DNA of 64,000 bases, taken from a virus. Its lineage: Duplodnaviria > Caudoviricetes. The DNA is taken from positions 1 through 64,000 of the IMG/VR virus record IMGVR_UViG_3300046710_000146. The stretch is one strand, 5' to 3'. Positions 3,907-60,126 of this stretch are shown here, piece by piece; the first letter of the stretch is position 1; every line of letters begins with the position of its first letter. Both the position numbers and the translations under genes were made by a program. Under the pieces are notes generated by a model. It had not been told where the DNA came from, did not search any database, and saw only the letters and a program-made list of their open reading frames with translations.

Positions 3907-4545
3907 ATGGACAACACCCTCGCCACCCAATGCATTGACCGCCAATCAGCCGCGATAGCTCGACTGCACGCTGTTATCGAAACCGCTGAATACCAAATTA
4001 TCACGGAGCTGGTAACCGAAATTGCGGGGATGGACTACAACGCTCGTGTGGTTATTGCGGGGGTCGGTAAGAACGCGAACATCGCTCACAAGATCAGCGA
4101 GACGATGGCAAGCCTCGGGATCCCATCATTCTTCTTGAACGTGTCACACTGCGGGCACGGTGATTACGGATTCGTGGGTCACAACGATGTGGTCATTCAC
4201 ATCAGTCGTTCTGGGCAGACGCGTGAGATGCTTGAGGTGATCAAACACCTGAAGGTCATTCGCCCGAATGTGAATCAAGTCTTGATCCATTGCAAGAAGG
4301 ACAAGCCAAAGAACGAAGACGTGAACATTGAGCTCTTCATTGGCTCAGTCGCTGAGGGTGATGAATTCGGTCTGGCCCCGACCACGAGCACGACGGCGCT
4401 GCTCTGCATTCTTGACTGCATCTCCGTGCAGGTGTCGCACAATCTTGGCTTCAAGCGATTAGACTTCTTGAAGTTCCATCCGGATGGGAAATTGGGAGAA
4501 CTTCTTAAACAGGAGGTTGGCGCCATGAACAAGACCATCCCTTAG
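3907..4545 (+). CDS. SIS-domain sugar-phosphate isomerase, KdsD/GutQ (arabinose-5-phosphate isomerase)-like, without CBS domains
   Basis: GVGKNANIAHKISETMASLG, HGDYG, ISRSGQTRE, APTTSTT and FHPDGKLG motifs; AAGGAG SD; TACAAT at 3877. Confidence 0.85.
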   Translation: MDNTLATQCIDRQSAAIARLHAVIETAEYQIITELVTEIAGMDYNARVVIAGVGKNANIAHKISETMASLGIPSFFLNVSHCGHGDYGFVGHNDVVIHISRSGQTREMLEVIKHLKVIRPNVNQVLIHCKKDKPKNEDVNIELFIGSVAEGDEFGLAPTTSTTALLCILDCISVQVSHNLGFKRLDFLKFHPDGKLGELLKQEVGAMNKTIP

Positions 4546-5167
4546 AGGGTCCTCTAGCTACTGGTCTATTCTGATTCTTTACCCACCGCAAAGAGGATTC
4601 CGATATGGACTTTTCTTTGCAGAAAGTTCTGAGGCATGAAACCCCGTAGCTGGCTCCTGTTGGGTCTACAAGAACCCATTGCTTAGAACTTGGGTTGTTT
4701 TCTCCACTTGATCTTGTAGAGATCTTTGCTTTTGCTTCAGCAGTGTGTTTGAAGCCGCTCACAGATAATGAAATTTTGTGTTTGGTCTTTTCAGTTTGTG
4801 CGACTCCCTTATTCCAAGCTTTTCTGATTTCGCCATTTGATTTGATCGTTGTAGGATTAGCAAACCCTCGGCCGCCGCGAGTGATGTTGAGCAGAGGACC
4901 ACCATCCTGTTTTCTTTTGTATTGCGCGATCAGCTCTATTTCAAGGTCAAATGCCTCATCTTGTGTTAGGTTTTCAGCAGTTCTGACAATTGTTGGGGCG
5001 ATATTCATCCTCTTCATTTTGGCTAGCCGATTGTAGAATGGAAGATTCTTTCGAGTATCGGGGTTTTTAAGGTGAGACTTATCCCGCCTATTCTTACCCT
5101 CCCCAATGTAAAAGGGTTCATTCTGCCGGCTAGGGTCAGAGTACATGTAAACGTAGTAGATATTCAT
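4505..5167 (-). mobile_element. free-standing GIY-YIG-type homing endonuclease with NUMOD3-like C-terminal repeats
   Basis: YYVYMY...FYIGEG..R..H, E..LI, LLN; HTAEAKAKIS and GENNP motifs; ATG 5167 lies 5 nt from TAAATA. Confidence 0.8.
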
Positions 5168-5215: not shown

Positions 5216-6877
5216 ATGGTCAATCTCGTAATTGTTGCTGGTGGTCTTGGGTCGCGACTCGCCCCGCTCACGAACTACATTCCAAAGTTCCTCGTGAACA
5301 TTGGCAAGGAAACCGGATTTGTTGAACAGATTCGGTACTGGAAACAGTACCATCCCGATTCAATCACGGTTATCGTGCACTCCGCGTACAAGGACATGGT
5401 GCAGGCGTACTACAACATGTACTTCAAGGGTGACGAGGACCTGAAGGTGATTGATCCAGATTGGTATATGACCTCGACCCCTTTCATTGTGAAGACGGTT
5501 GATGAGGCAAATGGGTCAGCACACGCGATCTTCAGCACGTGTTGGCACTTGAATGATCAACCAGTGTTGTTCACCTGGTGTGACGTGCTCCCAGCCGAAA
5601 CCTTCGACATCGAGCAGTTGAATCACGGTGGCCCAATCGCGTTCACGAACTACGATCATCCGAATCGCTATGATCTCATGCAGACTGGCACTGGGTGGTC
5701 GCAGCGTGAGCTCAAGATCCGTGAAGATGGGCGTGGTGGAATCTTTGGCATGTACTACGTGTCGACGTACCGTGCACAATCACATGTCGATGGGCAGGAC
5801 TTCGCGGATGTCCTTGGGCTGTACTCAACCGATGGGTACGTCAATGAGGTCAAGATCGGCTCAATCATTGACTTTGGTGATAAACCGAAGCTTGAACGAA
5901 CTCGTGAAACGGCAGATGGTGCACGCTCGTTCAACTCAGTTCAGATGCACGGTGATCTGGTTCTCAAAAGCGCCTTGAATGACCAGGGTAAGGTTCTGAT
6001 TGAGCGTGAAATCAAGTGGTACTCGTATCTTGAGGGTGCACGATCGCTTGTATGCCGCCCGAGCATTTGGCCATCCACCGATCGAACCTCGTTCGTGATG
6101 ACGAAGGTCAAGGGTGTTCCAATTTGGACGCTATGGCCGCAGTTGGATGACGATGGTCGAGCCATGGTCTTAACACGGGTGTTTGAGCAGCTTGACCTGC
6201 TCCACAACATTAATCTATCCGTTGGAAATGCGGTTGTGAAGCGTGATGTGCAAGCTGAGGCGTTCGACAAGCTCTTGAATCGACATGAAGAGATTGACGC
6301 GATGATCCAGTCATTTGGCCCTGTTACGTGGGTGAACGGGCAGAAGTTGAAGAACGCGTTCAATCCACGTGCAACGATCGGCGATCTGTTCGAGCGGCTT
6401 ATCAAGTTCTACGACGGGGTCGAGGTGCATCAGTTGATCCACGGTGACCTACAGATGTCGAACTCAATGATCGACCCTGACACGCTCGAGGTTACATTCA
6501 TTGACCCGCGTGGGTACTTTGGCAAGACCGATACGTTTGGTGTTGCGGATTACGACGTGGCTAAGCTGTTGTATTCGCTGAGCGGCTATGATCTCTTCAA
6601 CTACTCGAAGGACTTTCACCTGAAGCACAACGGCCTATGCCCAGAGACACACGGCCAGTGGGAGATAAAGTTCGATATTCCGCAGCCAAATCTGAGTGGT
6701 TGCAGCCAGATCATCGCTGATCGTTTCAGTGAAGTTCATGACCTTTGGTTGGCAGTCGTCTGGATTGGGCTCGCACAGTATATCCGCTCAGACCCCATTA
6801 AGATGGTCGCTGCCCATTTCCACGGGTTAGCAATGGCTGAGCGAGTTCTTGCTGGTGAACGGGCGTTCACACGTTGA
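5216..6877 (+). CDS. sugar-phosphate nucleotidyltransferase fused to an APH/choline-kinase-like phosphotransferase
   Basis: N-terminal AGGLGSRL.PLT..IPK; C-terminal IHGDLQMSN, FIDPRG and YDVAKL. Confidence 0.85.
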   Translation: MVNLVIVAGGLGSRLAPLTNYIPKFLVNIGKETGFVEQIRYWKQYHPDSITVIVHSAYKDMVQAYYNMYFKGDEDLKVIDPDWYMTSTPFIVKTVDEANGSAHAIFSTCWHLNDQPVLFTWCDVLPAETFDIEQLNHGGPIAFTNYDHPNRYDLMQTGTGWSQRELKIREDGRGGIFGMYYVSTYRAQSHVDGQDFADVLGLYSTDGYVNEVKIGSIIDFGDKPKLERTRETADGARSFNSVQMHGDLVLKSALNDQGKVLIEREIKWYSYLEGARSLVCRPSIWPSTDRTSFVMTKVKGVPIWTLWPQLDDDGRAMVLTRVFEQLDLLHNINLSVGNAVVKRDVQAEAFDKLLNRHEEIDAMIQSFGPVTWVNGQKLKNAFNPRATIGDLFERLIKFYDGVEVHQLIHGDLQMSNSMIDPDTLEVTFIDPRGYFGKTDTFGVADYDVAKLLYSLSGYDLFNYSKDFHLKHNGLCPETHGQWEIKFDIPQPNLSGCSQIIADRFSEVHDLWLAVVWIGLAQYIRSDPIKMVAAHFHGLAMAERVLAGERAFTR

Positions 6878-7458: not shown

Positions 7459-7758
7459 ATGAACAAACAAACCATCTGCACTGAAATCCGTTCTTCACGG
7501 TTTGATTTTGACACCCCAACAAAAACCTTCGTTACCGAAATGTCGGCGCTGGAACGTATGGATCCGTTGCGTCAGATCTGGAATGACTCATGCGACGCTG
7601 GTTTCGTGTTGATCTCATCTCAAACTGGTGCCAGGCTGGTCATGGTGCTCGTTGAAGAGCCGCGTCTCCCTGGTGTTGAAACAATCCGCTGGGTCTTCAC
7701 CGCCGTTTCTAACGATCCCGGTCTCCAAAAGCTACGTGCAACAATCTGGAACACATGA
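7459..7758 (+). CDS. hypothetical protein
   Basis: ORF directly after promoter. Confidence 0.7.
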   Translation: MNKQTICTEIRSSRFDFDTPTKTFVTEMSALERMDPLRQIWNDSCDAGFVLISSQTGARLVMVLVEEPRLPGVETIRWVFTAVSNDPGLQKLRATIWNT

Positions 7759-33352: not shown

Positions 33353-33372
33353 CCGGGACCCTAGGGTCCCGG
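33353..33372. terminator. perfect 20-bp palindrome between convergent genes
   Basis: CCGGGACCCTAGGGTCCCGG with an A-tract on the left. Confidence 0.75.
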
Positions 33373-35023: not shown

Positions 35024-35950
35024 CTAGGCTAGCCGCATAAATGATGGGTCCTTCTTAATGTCATAAGCGGTTCGACCTGTTTTCTTACAGGCTTCTGTCA
35101 GGCCATAGTATTGCACGCCTCGAACTCGCACTGGCTTCGACTTCTGGCGCTTCTCTGCTTCTGTCGCCGCCTTACCTTTACGAGGGCTAATTCGCCCGAT
35201 GGATGCCACTGAAAGTTTAGCCCTCGTCTCACTAGAGAGGTGGCGACCTGTAGCGAGCACTCGTAATTTTTGACGCTGTTCTTCCGACATAGGAGTTCGC
35301 GTCTTTGGTTTCCAACGCGTAGAATCGTCCAATGATCCATCTTCATTAACAAGGCAAAATGTAGGAAGCTTCCTTAAGGCGTGTTTTGACGGAAGGTTCA
35401 ATTTTTTGATAGCATCCCGCATGGTGTCGTAAACAGTTCCATCAACAATGCACTGTTTAGCTGAAGGGTTGAGTGCACCAGTCTTTGAAATAGAATAGTT
35501 CGCCTTCTGATCGTTGGATCGTGCACCAGTAGAAACGCCCATTCTCGCCGCCGAGATTTTGGCACGGTGAGCGTCACTTATAATCATGCCAGTCATCTGT
35601 TCTTTAGTTGCTTCTGCCTTTAGCTTTCTTGATTCAGCAAACTGTCTAGATGTTGGAACGTGTCTTAGCCCACCGGAGCCGCGAACACAAAATTGCCATA
35701 GTGCGTGGCACATCTTCCGGTTGTCGGGCCCTGTCGTCATTCGCACCAATAGAAGATGGGCGAGGAAATGCTCTCGCCCAGTTAGCAAAACGAGATTTGA
35801 CCCGAGACCGCCGCCCATTGATTTTGGCACCGCGTGATGCACCTCGTAATAGGTGCCCTGACCCTTCTTACGTGGTTCACTGCGTGCTTTTTCAATAAGC
35901 CTAGCATAGTAGCGTGAGTACTTGTTATCTCTAAATAAGAACATCTTCAT
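35024..35950 (-). mobile_element. free-standing HNH homing endonuclease with NUMOD3-like repeats
   Basis: YYEVHHAVPKSMGG...NLVLLTGREHFLAH; SDAHRAKIS and SSETRAKLS repeats. Confidence 0.85.
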
Positions 35951-36014
35951 CAATCATAGCTGGCGATGAAGATATTTATGTGTTTCAGCCAGCGGAACCT
36001 AAGGAGTTCATCCC

Positions 36015-38093
36015 GTGTATAATTTATTTTGGCGTTCGCCAGCTCTTCCGTTTGTCCAAAAGCAGACCCCCATCCTAGTACCAGCCGGTGCAATTGTTTC
36101 AACTGCCTCGTCACTTCGGTTCACGGGTAAGGGTGCAACGAACTATGGCAAGGTCCAGCAGGAGAACCTGCTCCGATTACTCGAGAACTTCGCGGGTGAT
36201 GCATCTCCTGATTACCCAACGGTTGGGCAGGTCTGGTTTGATACTCTTGAGGGGGTGCTCAAGGTCTGCGTGAACACCTCACCGGGGCCAACGCTCTGGC
36301 AGCAGCTGAACAGCACGCAGGTCACCCCGCCTGGTGCACCGCCCCCAACAACGGCAACGCTTGGTGACTCTTGGTTCTCTCAGACTGGATCGGCATCGGG
36401 TGTCCTATATGTTTACACTGGCATCGGCCGCTATCCACAGGTTGATTGGGACGCGACCGCTGCTGGATACTGGCCAGCCCCTGCAACATTCGATCTTCAG
36501 GTCATTCTGAATGCACAGGTGTTCGGTCCTGCGAACACGAACTTCAATGAAATGTACATTCACGGCACAACGGCTGGGCTCCCTGCTGATGTGGCTGGTA
36601 GCGTGTTGCTCGATGGGGTGCAGACCGTCGTGCCGGCCGGGTTTGCCGGCGTGAACTACGCCGTTACTGATGGGCTTATTGTTGTTGACCCAACGGCGAC
36701 GATGACGAGCACCGCAGCCGGGCAGGCGTACTTTGTGGTCCGCCGATTTGACGACGGGCGCTGGTTCTACGATAATCACACCACTCAAGTCGAGTTCGTA
36801 CCAACTGCCGCAATGTACGCAATTGGGGTCTGCACGATCACTGAACAAGACGACCAGAACGCTCCTGGCGTGGTTGCCGCAACGATGTGGTCAGCGGCAA
36901 AGCGGCTGACGAACATCACCCAAGCTGCAGGCGCCATGGTCGCAGGCGCAATCGGGGGCTGGGAACAAGTATGGCCAACCGTTGAAGTTGCTGGTGGCCG
37001 TCTTGAGTACGAATATTTGTACAGCCAGCTGGCATCCTTGATTGGCGACCCAATCGTCTTTGGGGGTTCAGCCGCTGAAGGGAAGAGCATTCCGTATTTG
37101 ACGAACTTCCAAGTGCTGGACGCCAGCATGCAGGCAGCATACGCCACTCGGTTTCCAACTGACCAAAATGTTTTTGCGAACGGTACTCTAAATTCGCTGA
37201 AGGTCGCGCCAAACTCACAAGACTGGGATGCGTTGCTCTCCGCTTGCCGGTACGCGGTGAATAGACTTGAACTCCCAGTTGGTGCCGCTGATGACGTGGC
37301 AACCTATCCGTTCGTGCAAGATGATCTGCCAGGTAAGGCGATCGCGTTCACTGACATTCGTGCGCTGCCCGCAGCCCGCAAGGTGCGCACTCGTGTAGGA
37401 ACAATCACCCTCGTCTCGCAGTATCAGGAAACATCAAATGTGCTGCGCGCCGCGATCAACAATCGGTATGTTGGTAAAGGAATACTTGGTGCATCAGGAG
37501 TTGGAACACCCCTGCCAACGGTGGTCGCTACGAACCAAGCGTCGTACACCGCAAATGCAGCATCGTTCTCTGGGACCGTATCTCACGGGCTGGCATATCA
37601 ATTTGCGCACACGCACCCAGATCTTGAGGCGTTCTTCTATTCAGCTGGAGTTATTCAGCTCATGATGGCACACACCCCAAGCGGTTCACCCGCCGGTGCA
37701 GACGCAGCGCTGCAGTTGTTGACATCAACCTATGGACGAATTCGCATTGCTGCTGACAAAACATACGTGATGTCAACAGGCCCGATGCCAGCGCTTGTGT
37801 TGGTTCCAAATTCACTTGGGTTCAATAACTTTACTGCCGGTGGCGTGGTGTTGGCGTCGATAACAAGTGGAGCCTCAACAGTCGTGATTCGCGGAGTGCG
37901 TGAAAGCGCATGGGTCGTGTCAATCTATGTTGACATCACCGCTGGCGGAGCAACAACTGGCACGTTCAACGTTCTGTGGAGCTACATCGGTGACGCTGAG
38001 CAGTACAACAACCCAGGCCCAACCTTGGTTTATCCAGTTCCAGATGTGAACTCGACAGGTGTTCACAAGCGAGGATCGTTTTTGTTTGTGTAA
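36015..38093 (+). CDS. virion structural (baseplate/tail-associated) protein
   Basis: GKGATNYG..QQENLLRLLENFA...P..P..GQVWFD module; AAGGAG SD; TAAATA 35932. Confidence 0.7.
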   Translation: MYNLFWRSPALPFVQKQTPILVPAGAIVSTASSLRFTGKGATNYGKVQQENLLRLLENFAGDASPDYPTVGQVWFDTLEGVLKVCVNTSPGPTLWQQLNSTQVTPPGAPPPTTATLGDSWFSQTGSASGVLYVYTGIGRYPQVDWDATAAGYWPAPATFDLQVILNAQVFGPANTNFNEMYIHGTTAGLPADVAGSVLLDGVQTVVPAGFAGVNYAVTDGLIVVDPTATMTSTAAGQAYFVVRRFDDGRWFYDNHTTQVEFVPTAAMYAIGVCTITEQDDQNAPGVVAATMWSAAKRLTNITQAAGAMVAGAIGGWEQVWPTVEVAGGRLEYEYLYSQLASLIGDPIVFGGSAAEGKSIPYLTNFQVLDASMQAAYATRFPTDQNVFANGTLNSLKVAPNSQDWDALLSACRYAVNRLELPVGAADDVATYPFVQDDLPGKAIAFTDIRALPAARKVRTRVGTITLVSQYQETSNVLRAAINNRYVGKGILGASGVGTPLPTVVATNQASYTANAASFSGTVSHGLAYQFAHTHPDLEAFFYSAGVIQLMMAHTPSGSPAGADAALQLLTSTYGRIRIAADKTYVMSTGPMPALVLVPNSLGFNNFTAGGVVLASITSGASTVVIRGVRESAWVVSIYVDITAGGATTGTFNVLWSYIGDAEQYNNPGPTLVYPVPDVNSTGVHKRGSFLFV

Positions 38094-38455: not shown

Positions 38456-38956
38456 ATGGCAGGAAAGATTTTTAGTTCACGAGATGAAATTTCATTCGAT
38501 GCAACATTGAGTGACTTCGTTTTTCTTGTGCACGATGTCCTTGAAAAAGATGAAGAGCCGGCGGCTGGTATTGAAGACCTGTTGGCACAGCTTGATACTG
38601 GTCTTGTTGAAATTGCTGAGGCGTACCAGCATCTGCATGAGCTGTGTGCAGCTCTGGCGATGGATGTACTAACGCTGTCAGTACATAACGGCAAGATGCT
38701 GAATGAGCTTAAGGTGGCGTTGAGGGCATTGGAGGCGCTAGCAGCACCGCCAAATGGTCAACCATTCGAGAAGGCGCTTCTGATCTTGAAGCGCGAAGGC
38801 GAGCCAGACATCTCAGCGGCCTCAGTGAATCCAGCGGATCCAAATGAGATTGAGATGAATATACAGCTCACATTCACCGAGGAAAAACTTGCCGAAGCGC
38901 TGCGCATCGCGATTTCTGAGTACATTAACGAGACAGTCTTTGAAGCTCTAGACTGA
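38456..38956 (+). CDS. acidic hypothetical protein
   Basis: AGGAGG SD. Confidence 0.75.
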   Translation: MAGKIFSSRDEISFDATLSDFVFLVHDVLEKDEEPAAGIEDLLAQLDTGLVEIAEAYQHLHELCAALAMDVLTLSVHNGKMLNELKVALRALEALAAPPNGQPFEKALLILKREGEPDISAASVNPADPNEIEMNIQLTFTEEKLAEALRIAISEYINETVFEALD

Positions 38957-39430
38957 CATCTTCGTTCTCTCTTGCCGGGGCCTGGTATCTTTACCACGGC
39001 CCCGGCTTTGGTTTGAGATCATGAACCCAGGGTACATCTGCTTGTACGCATTGGCCGTTTCAGCCTCCCGTACTTGAGCTAACTTCCTTGTCTCAAATCC
39101 ACCTTCCAACGCGATCAGCTTGAACTTAAAGCCAAGTGCCCCATGCATGTACCGTGGATCATACAGATCACTCTTGCCATGCTTGGTCTTTACTGAGCAT
39201 CGTACGAATTCAGAGATGTGCTCGCTTAATCGTACACGCGGGTCACGCGCGGTTTCGCCAATGTAGTGAAACAGGATCTCGCGATCAGCATGAACAATTA
39301 GGACCTGAAACAGGTACACCGTGTGCTGCCCCGGAACGTGCTTACCGGTGTCTGCAGCTTGACTATGAGGTAACGCTAGAATGAATCGCTGCCATTCTGA
39401 CGCAAGTTCGTTTAAAGAGTGTGGGGTCAT
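38948..39430 (-). CDS. small stand-alone GIY-YIG-like nuclease
   Basis: TVYLF...HYIGET...RLSEH...E...N; AAGGA SD; minus-strand TACAAT at 39463-39458. Confidence 0.7.
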   Translation of the reverse strand: MTPHSLNELASEWQRFILALPHSQAADTGKHVPGQHTVYLFQVLIVHADREILFHYIGETARDPRVRLSEHISEFVRCSVKTKHGKSDLYDPRYMHGALGFKFKLIALEGGFETRKLAQVREAETANAYKQMYPGFMISNQSRGRGKDTRPRQERTKMSV

Positions 39431-52395: not shown

Positions 52396-52805
52396 CCACC
52401 ATCTCTCCTACACTTTATAAGTACGCGATGAACATCAAGCTTAGCTCGGTGGAACCATCGCCTATGAACCTGGTATTTCCAAGCATTGAGGACATGGTGT
52501 TATCCTCGCGAAAATTTGATAAGCTTGAGGAGGCTGTTGACTCAGCTAATCGATTAGTCGGTGAGATTACAGGAACGCTTAATCTGGCCGTTTCAGGCGA
52601 GAAGTACAAGATGGTGGCTGAGATCAACCCAAGATTTACCGGGAAAGAAACGATCTCAAAGGATTGGGAGACGAATGAGGTTGCGAAGCTTTGGATCTAC
52701 GACAAGATCCTGCACGAGGCAAAGAAGGGTGGAACTGGGAACATCCTAGCCATTGCGCTCACACAGCTTCTGGAGATCCCTGGAGATTCCGTGTTGTTGA
52801 ACTGA
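52392..52805 (+). CDS. hypothetical protein
   Basis: ATGA overlap. Confidence 0.7.
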   Translation: MTTISPTLYKYAMNIKLSSVEPSPMNLVFPSIEDMVLSSRKFDKLEEAVDSANRLVGEITGTLNLAVSGEKYKMVAEINPRFTGKETISKDWETNEVAKLWIYDKILHEAKKGGTGNILAIALTQLLEIPGDSVLLN

Positions 52806-52886
52806 CCCTGACCCATAGGCGGGTTGCACGGGGCTTGGTGTTACGTTACAATTACATCTGTATCAACACACCTACAAAGGTTTCCT

Positions 52887-53240
52887 ATGCGCAATCCCCT
52901 TGCTGTCGCCGGTGCGGCTGACAAACCAAACGTGAAGTTCAAGAGCATCCAAGACATCATGCGTGATCCCACCATGAAGGCAAAGCTGAACAACCTGGTC
53001 GATGAGGCCGTGCGTTGCAAGCAACGAATCTACACCGAACAACAGGCGATGAAGGATCTTCGCGACGTGGCCCGGAACGATGTGGCGTTGAACCCAAAGC
53101 TGTTCAACTACTACGTGGCCATGGTGTTCAACAACGACTACGCCGCTCGCAAAGAGAACGTTGATCAACTTGAAACACTGATTGAAACCGTGATGAACCT
53201 CGGTGGCATGGTTGACGATGCCCCTGGCTTCGACGACTAA
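52887..53240 (+). CDS. T4 DsbA-like double-stranded DNA-binding protein
   Basis: helical pattern EA...K.RI.....MKDL...A......PKLFN; promoter TTGCAC-N17-TACAAT at 52824-52852. Confidence 0.6.
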   Translation: MRNPLAVAGAADKPNVKFKSIQDIMRDPTMKAKLNNLVDEAVRCKQRIYTEQQAMKDLRDVARNDVALNPKLFNYYVAMVFNNDYAARKENVDQLETLIETVMNLGGMVDDAPGFDD

Positions 53241-53243
53241 TCG

Positions 53244-53495
53244 ATGACCTGCATTAGATTTGGTGATGATCGTTCCATGGGCTTTGTCTGTGTGAACGAT
53301 CAGATCCGGCTTCATGTTGGAAACCGGTATGTGTGGATGAGCTGGCACGATTACACTGGGCCTTCTTTCTACACAATGGAAAACGGCGAGGAGGTCTATT
53401 ATGATCCAGTTGACGAGAACGACCCAGTGTGGGAACCGTTCGGTCGCTGGCTTATAAAGCACAACGCCGCTAAAGAGGCACGCACCAAAAAATGA
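53244..53495 (+). CDS. hypothetical protein
   Basis: ORF fills the gap. Confidence 0.65.
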   Translation: MTCIRFGDDRSMGFVCVNDQIRLHVGNRYVWMSWHDYTGPSFYTMENGEEVYYDPVDENDPVWEPFGRWLIKHNAAKEARTKK

Positions 53496-53500
53496 CAGTG

Positions 53501-54292
53501 TCATTGGCGGCAGTTGTCAAAATGCCATCGCCTCATGTTCCCTGCTGTTCCGGTTTTTCCACAATGTGGGCATGTAATCTTTGGCAAGCTTAGCCCCTGT
53601 TCACTGCGCTTCTGCCATGCTGCACGCTGACTCTCTTTATGTTTTTCAGACAGCGGTTTTCCAGTATGCAGTGCAACGAGCCGATCCCGTTGTTCTTGTG
53701 ACAACGGGATCCCCTTGCGGCTTTCAGACATCTTCCTGATTGTCTCGGCTGATCGTGGTTTGCCAGTAAACGCAGCCCTTAGTTTTGCCCGGGTTTCATC
53801 TTTAACCGGGCGACCCATCATGCCAGCGGAAATCTTGGCACACGTTTCAGCAGATGGCAGTGCTTTATTCTTTTGACCTTTACTGAGATTTGCACGCTCT
53901 TGCTCTGATCGTGGGCGACCTTTCTGAGCAGCCCCGATTTTGGCACGGTGCTCCGAGGATTTTGGCCTGCCAGCGACGCAAAAAGCGATACCGCCGGCTG
54001 GGTCAATAAAATGGCGATTGAGACATAGTGGATCTAACCGGTGCCCCTTAATCAGTTGCTGTTCTTCCCAATAGCAGTCTAGTGTTTCTCCAGTCATAAT
54101 GATTTGCCACTCAAATGCCTCGATCCCAAATGCGGAAATATTGCGCTTCATAATAGTGCTGGAGGACTGATAGTGATGTCTAAAATCTTGCTCAGGAGTT
54201 CGCTTCTTACGGATGTTAGCAGACCTGGACCCATAATAGAACTCGCCAGTTTGCTTGTTACGAATACAATATACATATGCCTGAAATGTCAT
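53501..54292 (-). mobile_element. free-standing GIY-YIG (Seg-like) homing endonuclease with multiple NUMOD3 repeats and a C-terminal CPHC..HFDNC motif
   Basis: YVYCIRN...FYYGSR; SSEHRAKIG, SAETCAKIS and SAETIRKMS repeats; AGGAG SD and GCTAAATA upstream. Confidence 0.85.
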
Positions 54293-55995
54293 CAAATACT
54301 CCTAAAGATCAGAACTATTTAGCAAGTTCGTACATTAGTTCAACACACGATTGGGACTCCGACAAGATTCTTGTTTGGGAGCGCCCAATTGGTGGGGGTG
54401 AACGACGCGTCGTAATGCACGATGCCCCACGGTACTTCTACGTGCCGGATGATGAGGGTGAGCATACCGCAATTGATGGGGTGAAGCTCAAGAAGTTCGT
54501 GTTCGATTCGAAAGATGAGTTCACGGCTGAAGCCCGGCGCCATCGCATCAAGTATGAAAGCGATATCCAGCCCGAGGCCCGACTGCTGATGGAGGCGTAC
54601 TACGGGCGCCCAACACCAGTCGTGAACTACGCGTTCCTCGACATCGAGGTTGATTACTCCTCGAAGATTGGTTGGAGCTCGCCAGAGAATCCGTACGCCC
54701 CGATAAACGCGATCACGATCTTCCAGTCATGGACAGGTAAGTACCTGACGTACGCGGTGCCACCAAAAACCTGGAAGGGTGATGAGGCTACGCTGCAGCT
54801 TGAAGTCCAGCGACTCTGGAAAGAGCACAAGCTGGACTTTGTACCCGATGTCACGATCTGTAAGACTGAGCGTGATCTGCTGTTGTATATGCTCGGTGAT
54901 ATCGAGGATGCCGACATAATCAGCGGCTGGAACTCTGAGTTCTTCGACAACCCGTACATCATCAAGCGACTTGAACGAGTCCTTGGTAAGAAGGGTCCAG
55001 GGCACATGTCATTCAAGGGGGCACGACCCCCTGCTGAACGAATCGTGAATCGATTTGGATCGCCCGCGATCACGTTCACTTTGTACGGTAGAACACACCT
55101 TGACTATCTTGATCTCTTCAAGAAGTTCACGTTTGAAGGGCGGGTCTCATACTCACTCGCGAACATCGCGGCTGAGGAGCTTGACGTTCCGAAGCTCGAC
55201 TATCCAGGTACGTTGGAGCAGCTGTACCATAACGACTTCGCACATTTCATCACGTATAACGCCCGCGACGTTGAGGTGCTTGTGCAGCTGGATATGAAGT
55301 TCAAGCTCATGCAGCTTGTGAACCAGATGGCACATGAGAACACCGTGCCGTTCATGGCAATTCTTGGCACCGTCCGATACGTTGAGACTGGGATGATTAA
55401 TCGTGCGCACAACGCGCACAACTTGATCGTGTGCGACAAGAACATGTCGGGCGAGTTGAATGAGAAGGTTGAAGGCGCCGTGGTGATGACACCTCGTGCA
55501 GGTCTATGGGAATGGATTGGTTCAATCGATCTTACCTCGCTGTACCCAAGCACCGCCCGCGCCCTGAACATGTCGATTGAAACCTTCGTTGGGCAGTTCG
55601 TTGATGAAGAGCGTGCATGGGAAGGTATCCGTGCCAGAGATGACAATCCATGGGAGGCCGTGATCTCCCATGAGAGCATCACGGCTACTGGGGCTCAGTG
55701 GTTCGAGTACCTACGAGCCGAGAACTATGCAATCTCTGGGTTCGGCACGATCTTCGATCAGAACAAACCTGGAATCGTTGCGGACACCCTGACATATTGG
55801 TTCAATGAGCGGCTTCGGCTACAGGCCAGTAAGAAAGCCGCGATTGCGGAGGTTAAGACGCTCAAGGCAACCTTGGGTATTCCCGCCCCCGCAGGGCTAC
55901 TTATCAAGGAAATGGCTGATCATGATCCATCATCAAAATTAGACGAAGGACTGTCAATTTATAACGACGACGATGGAATGCCAAATCAACTATGA
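54277..55995 (+). CDS. family B DNA polymerase, N-terminal subunit (exonuclease plus motif A)
   Basis: FLDIE, GWNSEFFD, YNARD and SIDLTSLYPS. Confidence 0.92.
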   Translation: MPEMSSNTPKDQNYLASSYISSTHDWDSDKILVWERPIGGGERRVVMHDAPRYFYVPDDEGEHTAIDGVKLKKFVFDSKDEFTAEARRHRIKYESDIQPEARLLMEAYYGRPTPVVNYAFLDIEVDYSSKIGWSSPENPYAPINAITIFQSWTGKYLTYAVPPKTWKGDEATLQLEVQRLWKEHKLDFVPDVTICKTERDLLLYMLGDIEDADIISGWNSEFFDNPYIIKRLERVLGKKGPGHMSFKGARPPAERIVNRFGSPAITFTLYGRTHLDYLDLFKKFTFEGRVSYSLANIAAEELDVPKLDYPGTLEQLYHNDFAHFITYNARDVEVLVQLDMKFKLMQLVNQMAHENTVPFMAILGTVRYVETGMINRAHNAHNLIVCDKNMSGELNEKVEGAVVMTPRAGLWEWIGSIDLTSLYPSTARALNMSIETFVGQFVDEERAWEGIRARDDNPWEAVISHESITATGAQWFEYLRAENYAISGFGTIFDQNKPGIVADTLTYWFNERLRLQASKKAAIAEVKTLKATLGIPAPAGLLIKEMADHDPSSKLDEGLSIYNDDDGMPNQL

Positions 55996-57356
55996 ACCTC
56001 GCACAAATTAAGAAGCAGTTGAAATCCGGAGATCTGATTCTGGACGGGGGGAAACTGTACACAAAAGAAGAGTGGGAGCAGATCAAAGCAAAGCAAGCTG
56101 AAGCAGATCACTACGATTTGCTTCAGCTCACGAAGAAGATTCAGCTGAACTCGGCATATGGTGCGCTCTTGAATGAAGCCTTCCGTTTCGGTCGTCGCGA
56201 AATCGGTGCGTCAATTACTGGCACTGGTCGCCAGATCACGAAGCACATGGGGCAGACGATTGGGACCCTTGCAACTGGGAACAAATGCACGTTCGAGAAG
56301 CGCTATGGTGACTTCAAGAACAAGAGCACACGCGCTGGGTCGTTTGAATCAGGCGAGCTGTACGGTGAGTGGCTCCAAGCTGAGAACTTCGAAGCGCTCC
56401 GTAATCTGCCGCAAGAGCAGCAATGGACACGGAAGTTCAGCAAGGAAAAGAACGCCGAGGTTGATGTCGGTTCCGGTGCAATATGGTTCACAGAGTGCCC
56501 AGCAATCATCTATGGTGATACTGACTCGTGCTACTTCTTAACGTACGGAACAGACTACGACGAGGCGGTTGCGCTAGCTGATGAGATTGCAACGCAAACG
56601 AACGCGACATTCCCAGCGTTTATGCAAGAGGCATTCAACTGTACAGGCGGTCGAGAGCTGTTGATCAAAGGCGCTCGTGAAGTCGTAGCTGAGCGTGGAC
56701 TGTTCATGCACATTAAGAAGAAGTACACGTTGCGTGTTGTCAATCTCGATGGGTATGATCTGCGGTCAAAGCCGAAGTTGAAGTCCATGGGATCTGAGAT
56801 CAAGAAAGCTGACACGCCAAAGGTGGTGCAGGACTTCTTGAAGGATCTGATGGACCTGGTACTCACCGGTAAACCGTACGCCGCAATGGAGGAGTTCATA
56901 AATGCACATCGTGGATCGTTGATCGGCGACGCGAAGGATGTGCTTGAGCTTGCAACCGCGAAGCAGGTGAACAACTTGGACGCGCTGTACGCTGAGTACA
57001 AGCGCACCGAGAAGATCAATAATGGAAAGATGAAGCACTGCCCAGGTCACGTTCGTTCCGCGATAAACTTCAACGAGATGCTTGAGCTCTTCGATGCAGG
57101 TGGAATGCAACCGCTGAAGGCGGGTGACAAAGCCGCGATTCTGTACTTGAAGGACAACGCATACAGGATCAACTCAATTGGGTTTCCACCTGACATGCAG
57201 CACCTCCCTGACTGGTTCGTCGAGAACTTCGCGGTCGATCTACGAAAGACCGAAGAGAAGATGATCGATAGCAAGGTTTCAGGGATCTTCAAGGCCCTTG
57301 GATATGAGACCCCAACCCTGCAGATGGCGCACCTGAAAAGCTCCTTCACATTCTGA
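55992..57356 (+). CDS. family B DNA polymerase, C-terminal subunit (motifs B and C, thumb)
   Basis: KIQLNSAYG, YGDTDS and KKKY. Confidence 0.92.
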   Translation: MNLAQIKKQLKSGDLILDGGKLYTKEEWEQIKAKQAEADHYDLLQLTKKIQLNSAYGALLNEAFRFGRREIGASITGTGRQITKHMGQTIGTLATGNKCTFEKRYGDFKNKSTRAGSFESGELYGEWLQAENFEALRNLPQEQQWTRKFSKEKNAEVDVGSGAIWFTECPAIIYGDTDSCYFLTYGTDYDEAVALADEIATQTNATFPAFMQEAFNCTGGRELLIKGAREVVAERGLFMHIKKKYTLRVVNLDGYDLRSKPKLKSMGSEIKKADTPKVVQDFLKDLMDLVLTGKPYAAMEEFINAHRGSLIGDAKDVLELATAKQVNNLDALYAEYKRTEKINNGKMKHCPGHVRSAINFNEMLELFDAGGMQPLKAGDKAAILYLKDNAYRINSIGFPPDMQHLPDWFVENFAVDLRKTEEKMIDSKVSGIFKALGYETPTLQMAHLKSSFTF

Positions 57357-57402: not shown

Positions 57403-58128
57403 ATGAAACTAACTGAAGCTGATCTGCCTAAATTTCGTGCTGCGCTCCTAGCATGCAAACTTGCCGGTCTCGACACCGTTGTGATCTCTGAAGGTATGCT
57501 TCGGGGTCTTGGCGATAAACGGAACGCCGCAATTGTGAGTGAGCTGAAGCTCTCAATTGATCCTGTGATCAGCATGGGGATCTCACGGGTGCCTGAGCTT
57601 GAGAAACGAATTGCAATGTTCGGTGAGCTCGTTGAGATTGATCTTGATGTGAACGATGCGAATAAGGTCAGAAAGCTTACCATTCGTGGTAAAGGCGGTA
57701 AGGTTGAATTCCGCTGTACTGACGAGAAGCTGATCACATACCCAAAGGCGAACAACGACGAACCAGGGGCAGTGGTGACGTTCACCAGACCCGAGGTAGC
57801 ACTCCTGGCAAAGGGCGCTAAGACCCTCTCTGTCGATCAGCTCACGTTCCAGATCAAGCGTGATGGCGCGGTGCATATTGAATGCGCTGATGCAGCCATG
57901 GACCGATTCGAGATTGATCTGGAAACCCCCGCGATGTTCGTTGAGGACTCATATCCAATTGTGAATCCATTCGATGTGTCTTCGGGTGGTGTGTTCCTCC
58001 AGCTGCTGGAACACATGGTCAAGGACTCAGACAGCATTGAACTTGTCGTCATGAAAACGGGGAACGTTGGCATGAAGATCTTTGGGCACGATGTGCTCGC
58101 AATCCCACGCGTACAAATTGGAGATTAA
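57403..58128 (+). CDS. probable DNA polymerase sliding clamp (gp45-like)
   Basis: 241 aa, two-domain alpha/beta pattern, directly after the polymerase; no strong motif. Confidence 0.45.
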   Translation: MKLTEADLPKFRAALLACKLAGLDTVVISEGMLRGLGDKRNAAIVSELKLSIDPVISMGISRVPELEKRIAMFGELVEIDLDVNDANKVRKLTIRGKGGKVEFRCTDEKLITYPKANNDEPGAVVTFTRPEVALLAKGAKTLSVDQLTFQIKRDGAVHIECADAAMDRFEIDLETPAMFVEDSYPIVNPFDVSSGGVFLQLLEHMVKDSDSIELVVMKTGNVGMKIFGHDVLAIPRVQIGD

Positions 58129-59109: not shown

Positions 59110-60126
59110 ATGAAACGAATGGTATGTGACGTCTCAAATTTATTTTGGAGATCAGTGAGCGCTCAACAGCGGTACGGCCCGGCTGATGCGACTGATTCAG
59201 CTGGTCTCGGGCTGCATATGAGCTTGATGTCGCTGCGCAAGCACTGGAACAACATCAAGCCAGACAAGCTCGCGATTGTGTTCGAAGGAAAGCAGAACTG
59301 GCGGAAAGAATACACCCGCTCTGATCAGTGCTATTCTCAGCGGCTGTACAAGGGAAACCGTGTTGCTGATCCAAGCATGGCTGTTCTGTTTGAGGTCATG
59401 AAGGCCTTTGAAGATCTTGCACGGCAGCATACGAACATCGTGACACTCGTGCACCCACGTCTTGAAGGCGATGATTTGATCGGTGGCTATGCGCATCATT
59501 TTGCTCAGCAGGGCGATGAGGTTGCAATCTTGTCTGGTGACAAGGACTTCGTGCAGTTCCTTGGTAACCCGCTGATCTCGCTGATCAACCCAGATGATGG
59601 CAAACCGCGGACCTTGTTGGATGTCTGTGGGGTTGATGATGCTGGGTACTTCATGTTTGAGAAGTGTTTCCGTGGCGACGCAGGCGACAACGTTCTCCCT
59701 GGGTTGCCGCGCGTTCGCAAGACCAAGCTGCAGAAGGCGTACGGCATAAATGGGGTGCCGGCCGATGACTTCGAGATGACGAACCTGATGAATAGCTCAT
59801 GGGAGTTCATCCACCCCGAGTCAGGCGATAAGCGCATGATGTCTGTCGAGAAGATGTACGTGGAGAATGATCTGTTGATGAACCTCCGTGGGCAGCCACC
59901 TGAGATTCAGGCACTGATCACCCAGGTCATCGAGCATGAAAGTGAGAACCATGGGAAGTTCGACTTCTTCCAGTTCCAGAAGTTCCTTGGCACATACAAG
60001 CTTCAACAGATCGCTGAGCGCTCGACGGACTTTGTGCCGATGTTCAGCGGGAAGTCACCATCAACGGTTCCAGCAAATTCAAAGGTCAAACAGCTCGCTG
60101 AGCGGCTTGGAGGGCTATCATTTTGA
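59110..60126 (+). CDS. rnh: T4 RNase H-like 5'-3' exonuclease (FEN family)
   Basis: DVSN, YKGNR, EGDD, SGDKDFVQ and GDAGDNV. Confidence 0.88.
   Translation: MKRMVCDVSNLFWRSVSAQQRYGPADATDSAGLGLHMSLMSLRKHWNNIKPDKLAIVFEGKQNWRKEYTRSDQCYSQRLYKGNRVADPSMAVLFEVMKAFEDLARQHTNIVTLVHPRLEGDDLIGGYAHHFAQQGDEVAILSGDKDFVQFLGNPLISLINPDDGKPRTLLDVCGVDDAGYFMFEKCFRGDAGDNVLPGLPRVRKTKLQKAYGINGVPADDFEMTNLMNSSWEFIHPESGDKRMMSVEKMYVENDLLMNLRGQPPEIQALITQVIEHESENHGKFDFFQFQKFLGTYKLQQIAERSTDFVPMFSGKSPSTVPANSKVKQLAERLGGLSF

Follow-up and report, generated by a model that had tools for sequence, protein, structure and literature searches.

We analysed a 64,000-nucleotide (nt) stretch of DNA from a Caudoviricetes virus, hereafter the window, which is the first 64 kb of one 113,862-bp virus contig of ~32% completeness (IMG/VR record IMGVR_UViG_3300046710_000146). 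The analysis concerns the junction at which a homing-endonuclease gene on the minus strand meets, head-to-head, the plus-strand gene for a family-B DNA polymerase. The features of the two genes and of their junction are listed below, in window positions.

53501–54292, minus strand: free-standing GIY-YIG/NUMOD3 homing-endonuclease open reading frame (ORF) of 263 amino acids (aa), complete and intact
54265–54270, plus strand: TACAAT, a hexamer of the −10 type that precedes the polymerase ATG by 6 nt and is complementary to endonuclease codons Tyr9-Cys10-Ile11 (TAT TGT ATT)
54277–55995, plus strand: N-terminal piece of the family-B DNA polymerase, 572 aa, with the exonuclease domain and the start of the polymerase domain (PF03104, PF00136)
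54277–54318, plus strand: 14 codons that extend the polymerase at its N-terminus (MPEMSSNTPKDQNY) and are missing from the aligned relatives
54303–54299, minus strand: Shine–Dalgarno (SD) sequence AGGAG of the endonuclease, 6 nt before ATG 54292, lying in plus-strand polymerase codons 8–9 (Thr-Pro)
54322–54316, minus strand: late-promoter motif CTAAATA of the endonuclease, lying in plus-strand polymerase codons 14–16 (Tyr-Leu-Ala)
54319–54330, plus strand: polymerase codons 15–18, aligned in place of the relatives' M-x-x-x
55992–57356, plus strand: C-terminal piece of the family-B DNA polymerase, 454 aa, with KxxxNSxYG and YGDTDS motifs (Pfam, direct reading)

The two ORFs overlap head-to-head by 16 nt. 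Direct reading of the polymerase frame gave a start at ATG 54277 and a second ATG at 54286, and the next in-frame ATG, GTG or TTG lies at 54415 (M47). A start at M47 would lose the invariant N-terminal residues W34, R36 and R43; residues 19–46 contain positions that are invariant in relatives, and in the structural model the N-terminal domain opens with beta strands built from this segment. Polymerase starts at M47 and at ATT 54334 were rejected for the loss of conserved residues 19–46 or for a non-canonical start codon. The endonuclease ATG lies at 54292, and the in-frame TTG at 54295 was rejected as a start because its spacing to AGGAG is too short. Since the GIY motif begins at residue 7, the endonuclease must start upstream of 54277. 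The 16-nt overlap is robust because neither gene can start later, and the polymerase ATG is itself the antisense of the endonuclease Ala6-Tyr7 codons.

These readings agree with an earlier note on this DNA, according to which the only usable polymerase starts (54277/54286) overlap the endonuclease start at 54292, the TACAAT that lies 6 nt ahead of the ATG is complementary to the codons for the YVYCI strand, and the endonuclease SD sequence falls inside early polymerase codons. That note also placed a late promoter within the polymerase codons. A motif of the late class is present there, but it spans the seven bases 54322–54316 rather than the six bases 54321–54316, and it is a CTAAATA variant rather than the TATAAATA of T4.

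The polymerase belongs to the gp43-like family B, as indicated by matches to PF03104 and PF00136 across both pieces and by the DIEVD, KxxxNSxYG and YGDTDS motifs that were read in them. It was nearest to the polymerases of jumbo phages, with Ralstonia phage RsoM2USA at 49% identity followed by Xoo-sp13, XacN1 and PA5oct. Its two pieces meet at an ATGA stop/start overlap (55992–55995) just before KxxxNSxYG, with no intervening gene. Some related polymerases are split (P0001, at 536 aa, P0005 and P0007) and some are unsplit (about 950–980 aa), and a Hef-like endonuclease gene separates the two polymerase pieces of PA5oct.

The endonuclease ORF encodes the GIY-YIG motifs YVYCI and YYGS, NUMOD3 repeats and a C-terminal CxxC...HxxxC Cys/His module. 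Pfam profiles matched it above their cut-offs, SegE_GIY-YIG with 29.2 bits (cut-off 25) and NUMOD3 with 35.8 bits (cut-off 20.4), and Seg-type endonucleases of T4-like phages matched it at 26–32% identity. When it was aligned with its relatives, Y8, G16, Y19, G21, E77 and N92 were invariant and the C-terminal CPHCG...WHFDNC was kept. A sequence search of the PDB with the endonuclease returned no matches. Judged from its sequence, which has both the catalytic and the DNA-binding module, and from its patchy presence among related genomes, the gene is a Seg-type free-standing GIY-YIG endonuclease.

Origin of the polymerase 5′ end

We inspected 70 close relatives of the polymerase and found that nearly all begin with M and 2–5 residues followed by [SN]Y[IV]. 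The native homology of the window's polymerase begins at Tyr19 (54331), and its 14-residue tail was unique among these ~70 proteins. The closest relative, P0001 (93% identity), starts with MTTNYIS (MTTNYISASHDWDSDK, compared with MPEMSSNTPKDQNYLASSYISSTHDWDSDK in the window), and the polymerase of the endonuclease-free relative L005 starts with MNTSYIS. The tail is also missing in RsoM2USA, where AAGGAAG precedes a TTG start, and in Xoo-sp13 and PA5oct. It had been expected that relatives free of the endonuclease would start their polymerase near [ST]-x-YIS without MPEMSSNTPKDQNY, and this held for L005, RsoM2USA, Xoo-sp13 and PA5oct; P0001 likewise starts there without the tail. In an AlphaFold2 model, the predicted local distance difference test (pLDDT) score was <50 for residues 1–14 and the first strand began at residue 17, so the tail has the look of a disordered addition that the protein tolerates.

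Read on the opposite strand, the tail codons are the DNA that carries the endonuclease's AGGAG and CTAAATA. Because the tail is exactly the DNA holding the SD sequence and promoter motif of the endonuclease, comparison with the relatives indicates that the start codon of the polymerase very probably comes from an inserted cassette.

The endonuclease was absent between the conserved genes in L005, L001, L002 and L003, and the polymerases of these loci lack the tail. We searched for the same endonuclease in IMG/VR, in 5.8 billion proteins and in Joint Genome Institute (JGI) metagenomes, and found only relatives of ≤52% identity, none of them in this arrangement. Two of these relatives (P0122 and P0123, 50–52% identity) retain YVYCI and YYGS, so these amino-acid motifs predate the insertion. 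In a crude census of ~19 distant endonuclease loci with usable upstream flanks, the upstream neighbour was co-directional in most, and no clear head-to-head overlap was found.

A different AT-rich GIY-YIG-like gene (5295–6005) occupies the same spacer, between a dsbA-like gene and the polymerase, in L004 (IMGVR_UViG_3300033555_000001, 310 kb), whose polymerase is 78% identical. This gene lies on the same strand as the polymerase, and its last codons contain the polymerase start (MANMQQKTNYISS). From these sequences, L004 is an independent invasion of the same site that again rebuilt the first codons of the polymerase, and insertions seem to recur at the 5′ edge of the polymerase gene. The polymerase relatives P0012, P0017 and P0035 carry other, unrelated N-terminal extensions of about 14–20 residues before the YIS motif, which may stem from further insertions at this edge or from gene calls that begin too early.

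Candidate promoters on the two strands

We next consider the hexamer that precedes the polymerase ATG. TA[CT]AAT occurs 58 times in the 113.9-kb contig, and an ATG follows at exactly +6 in 10 of these cases compared with ~1 expected (binomial p = 1e-7), whereas spacings of 3–5 and 7–10 nt gave 0–2 cases each. Eight of the 10 sites open ORFs of at least 99 codons, including those of the polymerase (54277) and the sliding-clamp-type gene of the gp45 kind (57403). Gene starts that combine TA[CT]AAT-N6-ATG with the lack of an SD sequence were seen at window positions 7459, 12763, 31302, 39532, 49997, 54277 and 57403 and at contig positions 65253 and 110704. The clamp-gene module is conserved in L005 as TACAAT-tacatc-ATG. 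The polymerase site itself is TACAAT-atacat-ATG, and the preceding 20 nt contain nothing that resembles GGAG.

Since +1 falls ~7 nt after a −10 hexamer, genes of this class would have leaderless mRNAs. The spacing at the polymerase suggests that TACAAT puts +1 on the A of its ATG, which would give a leaderless mRNA whose first 25 nt are predicted to be unpaired. No significant RNA structure was found at the endonuclease/polymerase junction. The 5′ end of the endonuclease gene can be regarded as pre-adapted raw material, because its TAT-TGT-ATT codon choice yields TACAAT on the other strand. The cassette thus plausibly supplies a polymerase promoter as well as a start. TTGCTT at 54251 was rejected as a MotA box or −35 element on account of its wrong spacing (8 nt).

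Two further plus-strand sites bear on transcription toward the polymerase.

52847–52852, plus strand: TACAAT promoter-like site before the dsbA-like gene and an 83-aa ORF, orf83, with a homologous TACAAT before the dsbA-like gene in L004 and L005
54228–54237, plus strand: tentative upstream element GGACCCATAA, ~37 nt before TACAAT, complementary to the codons for YYGS in the YIG motif

A [TG]GACCCA element is common to the candidate promoters of the dsbA-like gene, the polymerase and the clamp (52847, 54265 and 57391). [TG]GACCC was found at +37/38 in 3 of the 58 hexamers compared with ~0.07 expected, a post hoc count that is weak evidence.

For the minus-strand signal, the exact late motif of T4 (TATAAATA) has zero copies in the contig and was rejected as the late motif in favour of [CA]TAAATA. 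This 7-mer occurs 25 times, and 16 of the 25 copies lie within 45 nt upstream of a start that opens an ORF, compared with 14.7% for permuted 7-mers (Fisher p = 6e-8). The late consensus of the T4-like phage Aeh1 is CTAAATA at −12 to −6 (PMC1524935). A matching sigma factor is encoded on the same contig.

Contig 112868–113404, minus strand: gp55-like late sigma factor gene (T4 gp55, E = 2e-7; PHROG 234 'late sigma transcription factor', E = 1e-28)

Both the motif class and the gp55-like sigma gene therefore correspond to T4-type late promoters. The arrangement [CA]TAAATA-N4-5-ATG was seen at the late genes 5167, 7397, 68673, 78969 and 107859, and together with TA[CT]AAT-N6-ATG it suggests leaderless mRNAs for both promoter classes. 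At the junction, the motif would place the transcription start of the endonuclease at ~54310 on the minus strand. Both interlocked motifs belong to classes supported by their positions in the contig, and promoter activity is predicted for each.

Gene neighbourhood and other antisense endonucleases

The polymerase lies in a T4-like replication module on the plus strand, which carries nearly all genes from 0 to 77 kb. The neighbouring genes are as follows.

52884–53240, plus strand: dsbA-like regulator gene, replication module
53244–53495, plus strand: orf83, between the dsbA-like gene and the endonuclease
57403–58128, plus strand: gp45-like clamp gene, replication module
59110–60126, plus strand: RNase H-type exonuclease gene, replication module

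A Megablast search of the region against phage records and an Rfam scan of the window both returned zero matches. Three gene ends, at window positions 33356 and 47287 and at contig position 105078, carry the perfect palindrome GGGACCCTAGGGTCCC, and these copies are probably bidirectional terminators.

The same strategy had also been proposed for an HNH gene at 35.9 kb, and two features are relevant to that locus.

35024–35950, minus strand: HNH-like and NUMOD3 endonuclease ORF, with its own ATAAATA at 35979–35973
35931–35937, plus strand: CTAAATA in the first codons of the HNH ORF, upstream of a structural-protein gene (36015–38093)

Here the promoters do face each other, with a predicted overlap of ~25 nt, but the two genes begin 65 nt from each other, with no overlap of their start codons, and the structural gene keeps its own start, GTG 36015, with AAGGAG. 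The 35.9-kb locus is accordingly a related but weaker case. An inverted repeat (ATCTTCATC ... GATGAAGAT) runs across the HNH start codon (35940–35975, minus strand), and the predicted late transcription start falls in its left arm; hairpins of a similar kind sequester the start site in I-TevI and mobE.

Four endonuclease-like genes (GIY-YIG and/or NUMOD3, HNH) lie antisense in the plus-strand early/middle block, at 4505–5167, 35024–35950, 38948–39430 and 53501–54292, all on the minus strand. A [CA]TAAATA motif was found at three of the four. In T4, segD alone is antisense.

Interpretation, alternatives and known systems

We interpret the junction as the product of a selfish insertion. A cassette consisting of late promoter, SD sequence and endonuclease ORF would have entered, in antisense orientation, the variable spacer just upstream of the polymerase gene of a T4-like jumbo phage and replaced the native start region. 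The polymerase would now start at ATG 54277, inside endonuclease codons 6–7, and read through the antisense of the endonuclease's 5′ untranslated region and promoter, which would yield a disordered tail of ~14 residues; the native sequence would resume at Tyr19. TACAAT, within endonuclease codons 9–11, would act as the −10 element, with the transcript beginning at the A of the ATG as proposed for at least seven other ORFs of at least 99 codons. The endonuclease would be made late, from CTAAATA and AGGAG within the polymerase tail codons, through the gp55-like sigma factor.

The predicted transcription starts (plus strand, ~54277; minus strand, ~54310) would be oriented toward each other over a distance of 34 bp, and the 5′ ends of the two RNAs would be complementary over 34 nt. 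Until replication begins, transcription of the sigma-70 type would run antisense to the endonuclease gene, both by read-through from 52847 and from 54265. Late in infection, gp55-type transcription would express the endonuclease and cross the polymerase promoter, so that early/middle polymerase transcription and late endonuclease transcription would be mutually exclusive. We infer this exclusion, together with antisense masking of the 5′ AUG, from the geometry of the starts, and consider both plausible. Loss of the first 11 codons of the endonuclease would remove the polymerase start and probably its promoter, and the phage would stay viable only if an endonuclease-free allele took the place of the cassette. 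Because deletion of its 5′ end has these consequences, the selfish gene would tend to be retained. Taken as a whole, from cassette insertion through the TACAAT promoter and late CTAAATA expression to mutual exclusion and retention, this reading seems to us probably correct, with considerable room for doubt.

Several observations weigh against it. The contig is a single metagenomic assembly, and the endonuclease is a singleton, no second genome that carries it having been found in the collections searched. TACAAT has no recognisable −35 or TG extension (9 of 12 matches in a sigma-70 scan), and the conserved Tyr-Cys-Ile codons may by themselves account for the hexamer. A search of 52600–54600 gave no terminator that would separate the 52847 promoter from the polymerase gene. 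By a simple test, an SD sequence is missing from about half of the phage's genes, so ribosomes might initiate internally on a read-through mRNA. In L005, the polymerase simply follows the upstream ORF, to which an ATGA overlap couples it. The points on promoter and initiation would fit a polymerase transcribed essentially from 52847 by read-through, with an SD-independent start at ATG 54277 or 54286 and a silent TACAAT, to which the endonuclease contributed only a start codon and a tail. Such an arrangement also finds precedent in relatives, whose polymerase genes share a transcript with, or are coupled to, the genes before them, and YVYCI is conserved in the relatives of the endonuclease. What it leaves unexplained is the exact N6 spacing, which fits the class enriched at p = 1e-7, and a chance of only ~2.5e-4, from hexamer density, of TA[CT]AAT falling at the exact offset from a given ATG. 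The same module is moreover present at the clamp gene 3 kb downstream and conserved in L005. We regard transcription from 52847 alone as possible, though it is not the explanation we would expect to hold.

A silent or decaying endonuclease would account for the locus in another way, with CTAAATA and AGGAG as chance or relic sequences and no regulatory interplay. The singleton status of the gene, its nearest relatives at just 50–52% identity and the lack of notable RNA structure would suit such a passenger, as would the case of segD, the one antisense endonuclease of T4, which is thought to be barely expressed (PMC2988022). Yet the 263-aa ORF is intact with conserved catalytic positions, the AGGAG spacing is near-ideal, and the late motif is of an enriched class with a chance of ~0.004 of one occurring within 40 nt. 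Other antisense endonuclease-like genes of the contig (5167 and 35950) likewise bear [CA]TAAATA, and we find a passenger improbable. A chimeric assembly junction or a mis-called start (M47 or a non-canonical codon) would do away with the overlap altogether, and the sequence does come from one metagenomic contig with no independent copy. Against an artefact, the frame is open and runs in frame from cassette DNA into native polymerase sequence, and residues 19–46 are conserved, with invariant positions in relatives, and fold as the first strands of the N-terminal domain. An explanation of this kind is hardly credible.

The insertion reading can be extended to a temporal toggle, in which early and middle RNA polymerase would make the leaderless mRNA from TACAAT and, once replication has begun, gp55-type RNA polymerase at CTAAATA would occlude the DNA polymerase promoter, its transcript would pair over 34 nt with the AUG end of the leaderless mRNA, and the endonuclease would be expressed. 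We think this extension unlikely. If it were true, the selfish gene would be a late shut-off device for an essential replication gene, and the endonuclease might bind the remaining half of its homing site beside its own promoter, as I-TevI does.

Whatever the transcriptional details, the locus illustrates the degree to which a selfish endonuclease and an essential gene can become intertwined when neither intron nor intein is involved. Over 16 nt both strands are coding, one for each gene, each gene would contain expression signals of the other, and the polymerase tail would be a translated copy of the endonuclease's promoter region. The locus also offers a compact test case for face-to-face promoter interference, for leaderless translation in a T4-like phage and for the way in which essential genes regain start signals once a mobile element has invaded.

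The idea that a mobile gene secures its place by supplying signals of an essential gene is already published for T4. There, the segG ORF holds the middle and late promoters of the essential gene 32, similar situations exist at segA, segE, mobB and mobC (Edgell, Gibb and Belfort 2010, PMC2988022), and such embedded promoters were stated to favour retention of the endonuclease (PMC2988022). Where the earlier note saw the mobile gene supplying both start and promoter of the polymerase as a lock-in, the start codon is strongly supported as coming from the cassette, the promoter is only plausible, and the principle was known. As at segG/gene 32, a free-standing endonuclease occupies the spacer before an essential replication gene, that gene's candidate promoter lies inside the endonuclease ORF, and deleting the endonuclease would harm the phage. 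In T4, however, the two genes are co-oriented and the host gene keeps its start and N-terminus, whereas here the endonuclease lies on the opposite strand, the starts overlap by 16 nt, the polymerase N-terminus appears rebuilt from cassette DNA, and the endonuclease promoter and SD sequence fall inside polymerase codons. The embedded-promoter idea would thereby extend to antisense insertions.

Among the T4 endonucleases, segD, between genes 23 and 24, is the only one in antisense; no promoter could be identified for it, and terminators stand between it and the adjacent genes (PMC2988022). The window's gene resembles it as a GIY-YIG Seg-type gene set against its neighbours, and differs in having a class-typical late motif, a good SD sequence and a physical overlap with the neighbour's start. 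Remodelling of an essential coding sequence without splicing, and a polymerase in two pieces, are shared with mobE in nrdA of Aeh1 and with the split gp43 of Aeromonas T4-like phages. Those are internal, same-direction insertions, whereas here the 5′ end is remodelled and no endonuclease lies between the polymerase pieces. As in I-TevI and mobE of T-even phages, a predicted T4-type late promoter stands just upstream of the endonuclease's ribosome-binding site; in those genes a hairpin sequesters that site, whereas none was detected here and the antisense orientation isolates the gene from early transcription. The placement of a −10 hexamer ~6–7 nt before an AUG that lacks an SD sequence recalls the leaderless cI mRNA of lambda transcribed from PRM, but here the pattern is recurrent, with at least 8 ORFs of at least 99 codons in 114 kb, and the genes for which we propose it include core replication genes of a T4-like phage. 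What is new relative to the published lock-in at segG/gene 32 is the antisense arrangement with overlapping start codons, the reciprocal nesting of signals, the rebuilt N-terminus of an essential protein and the leaderless-type geometry.

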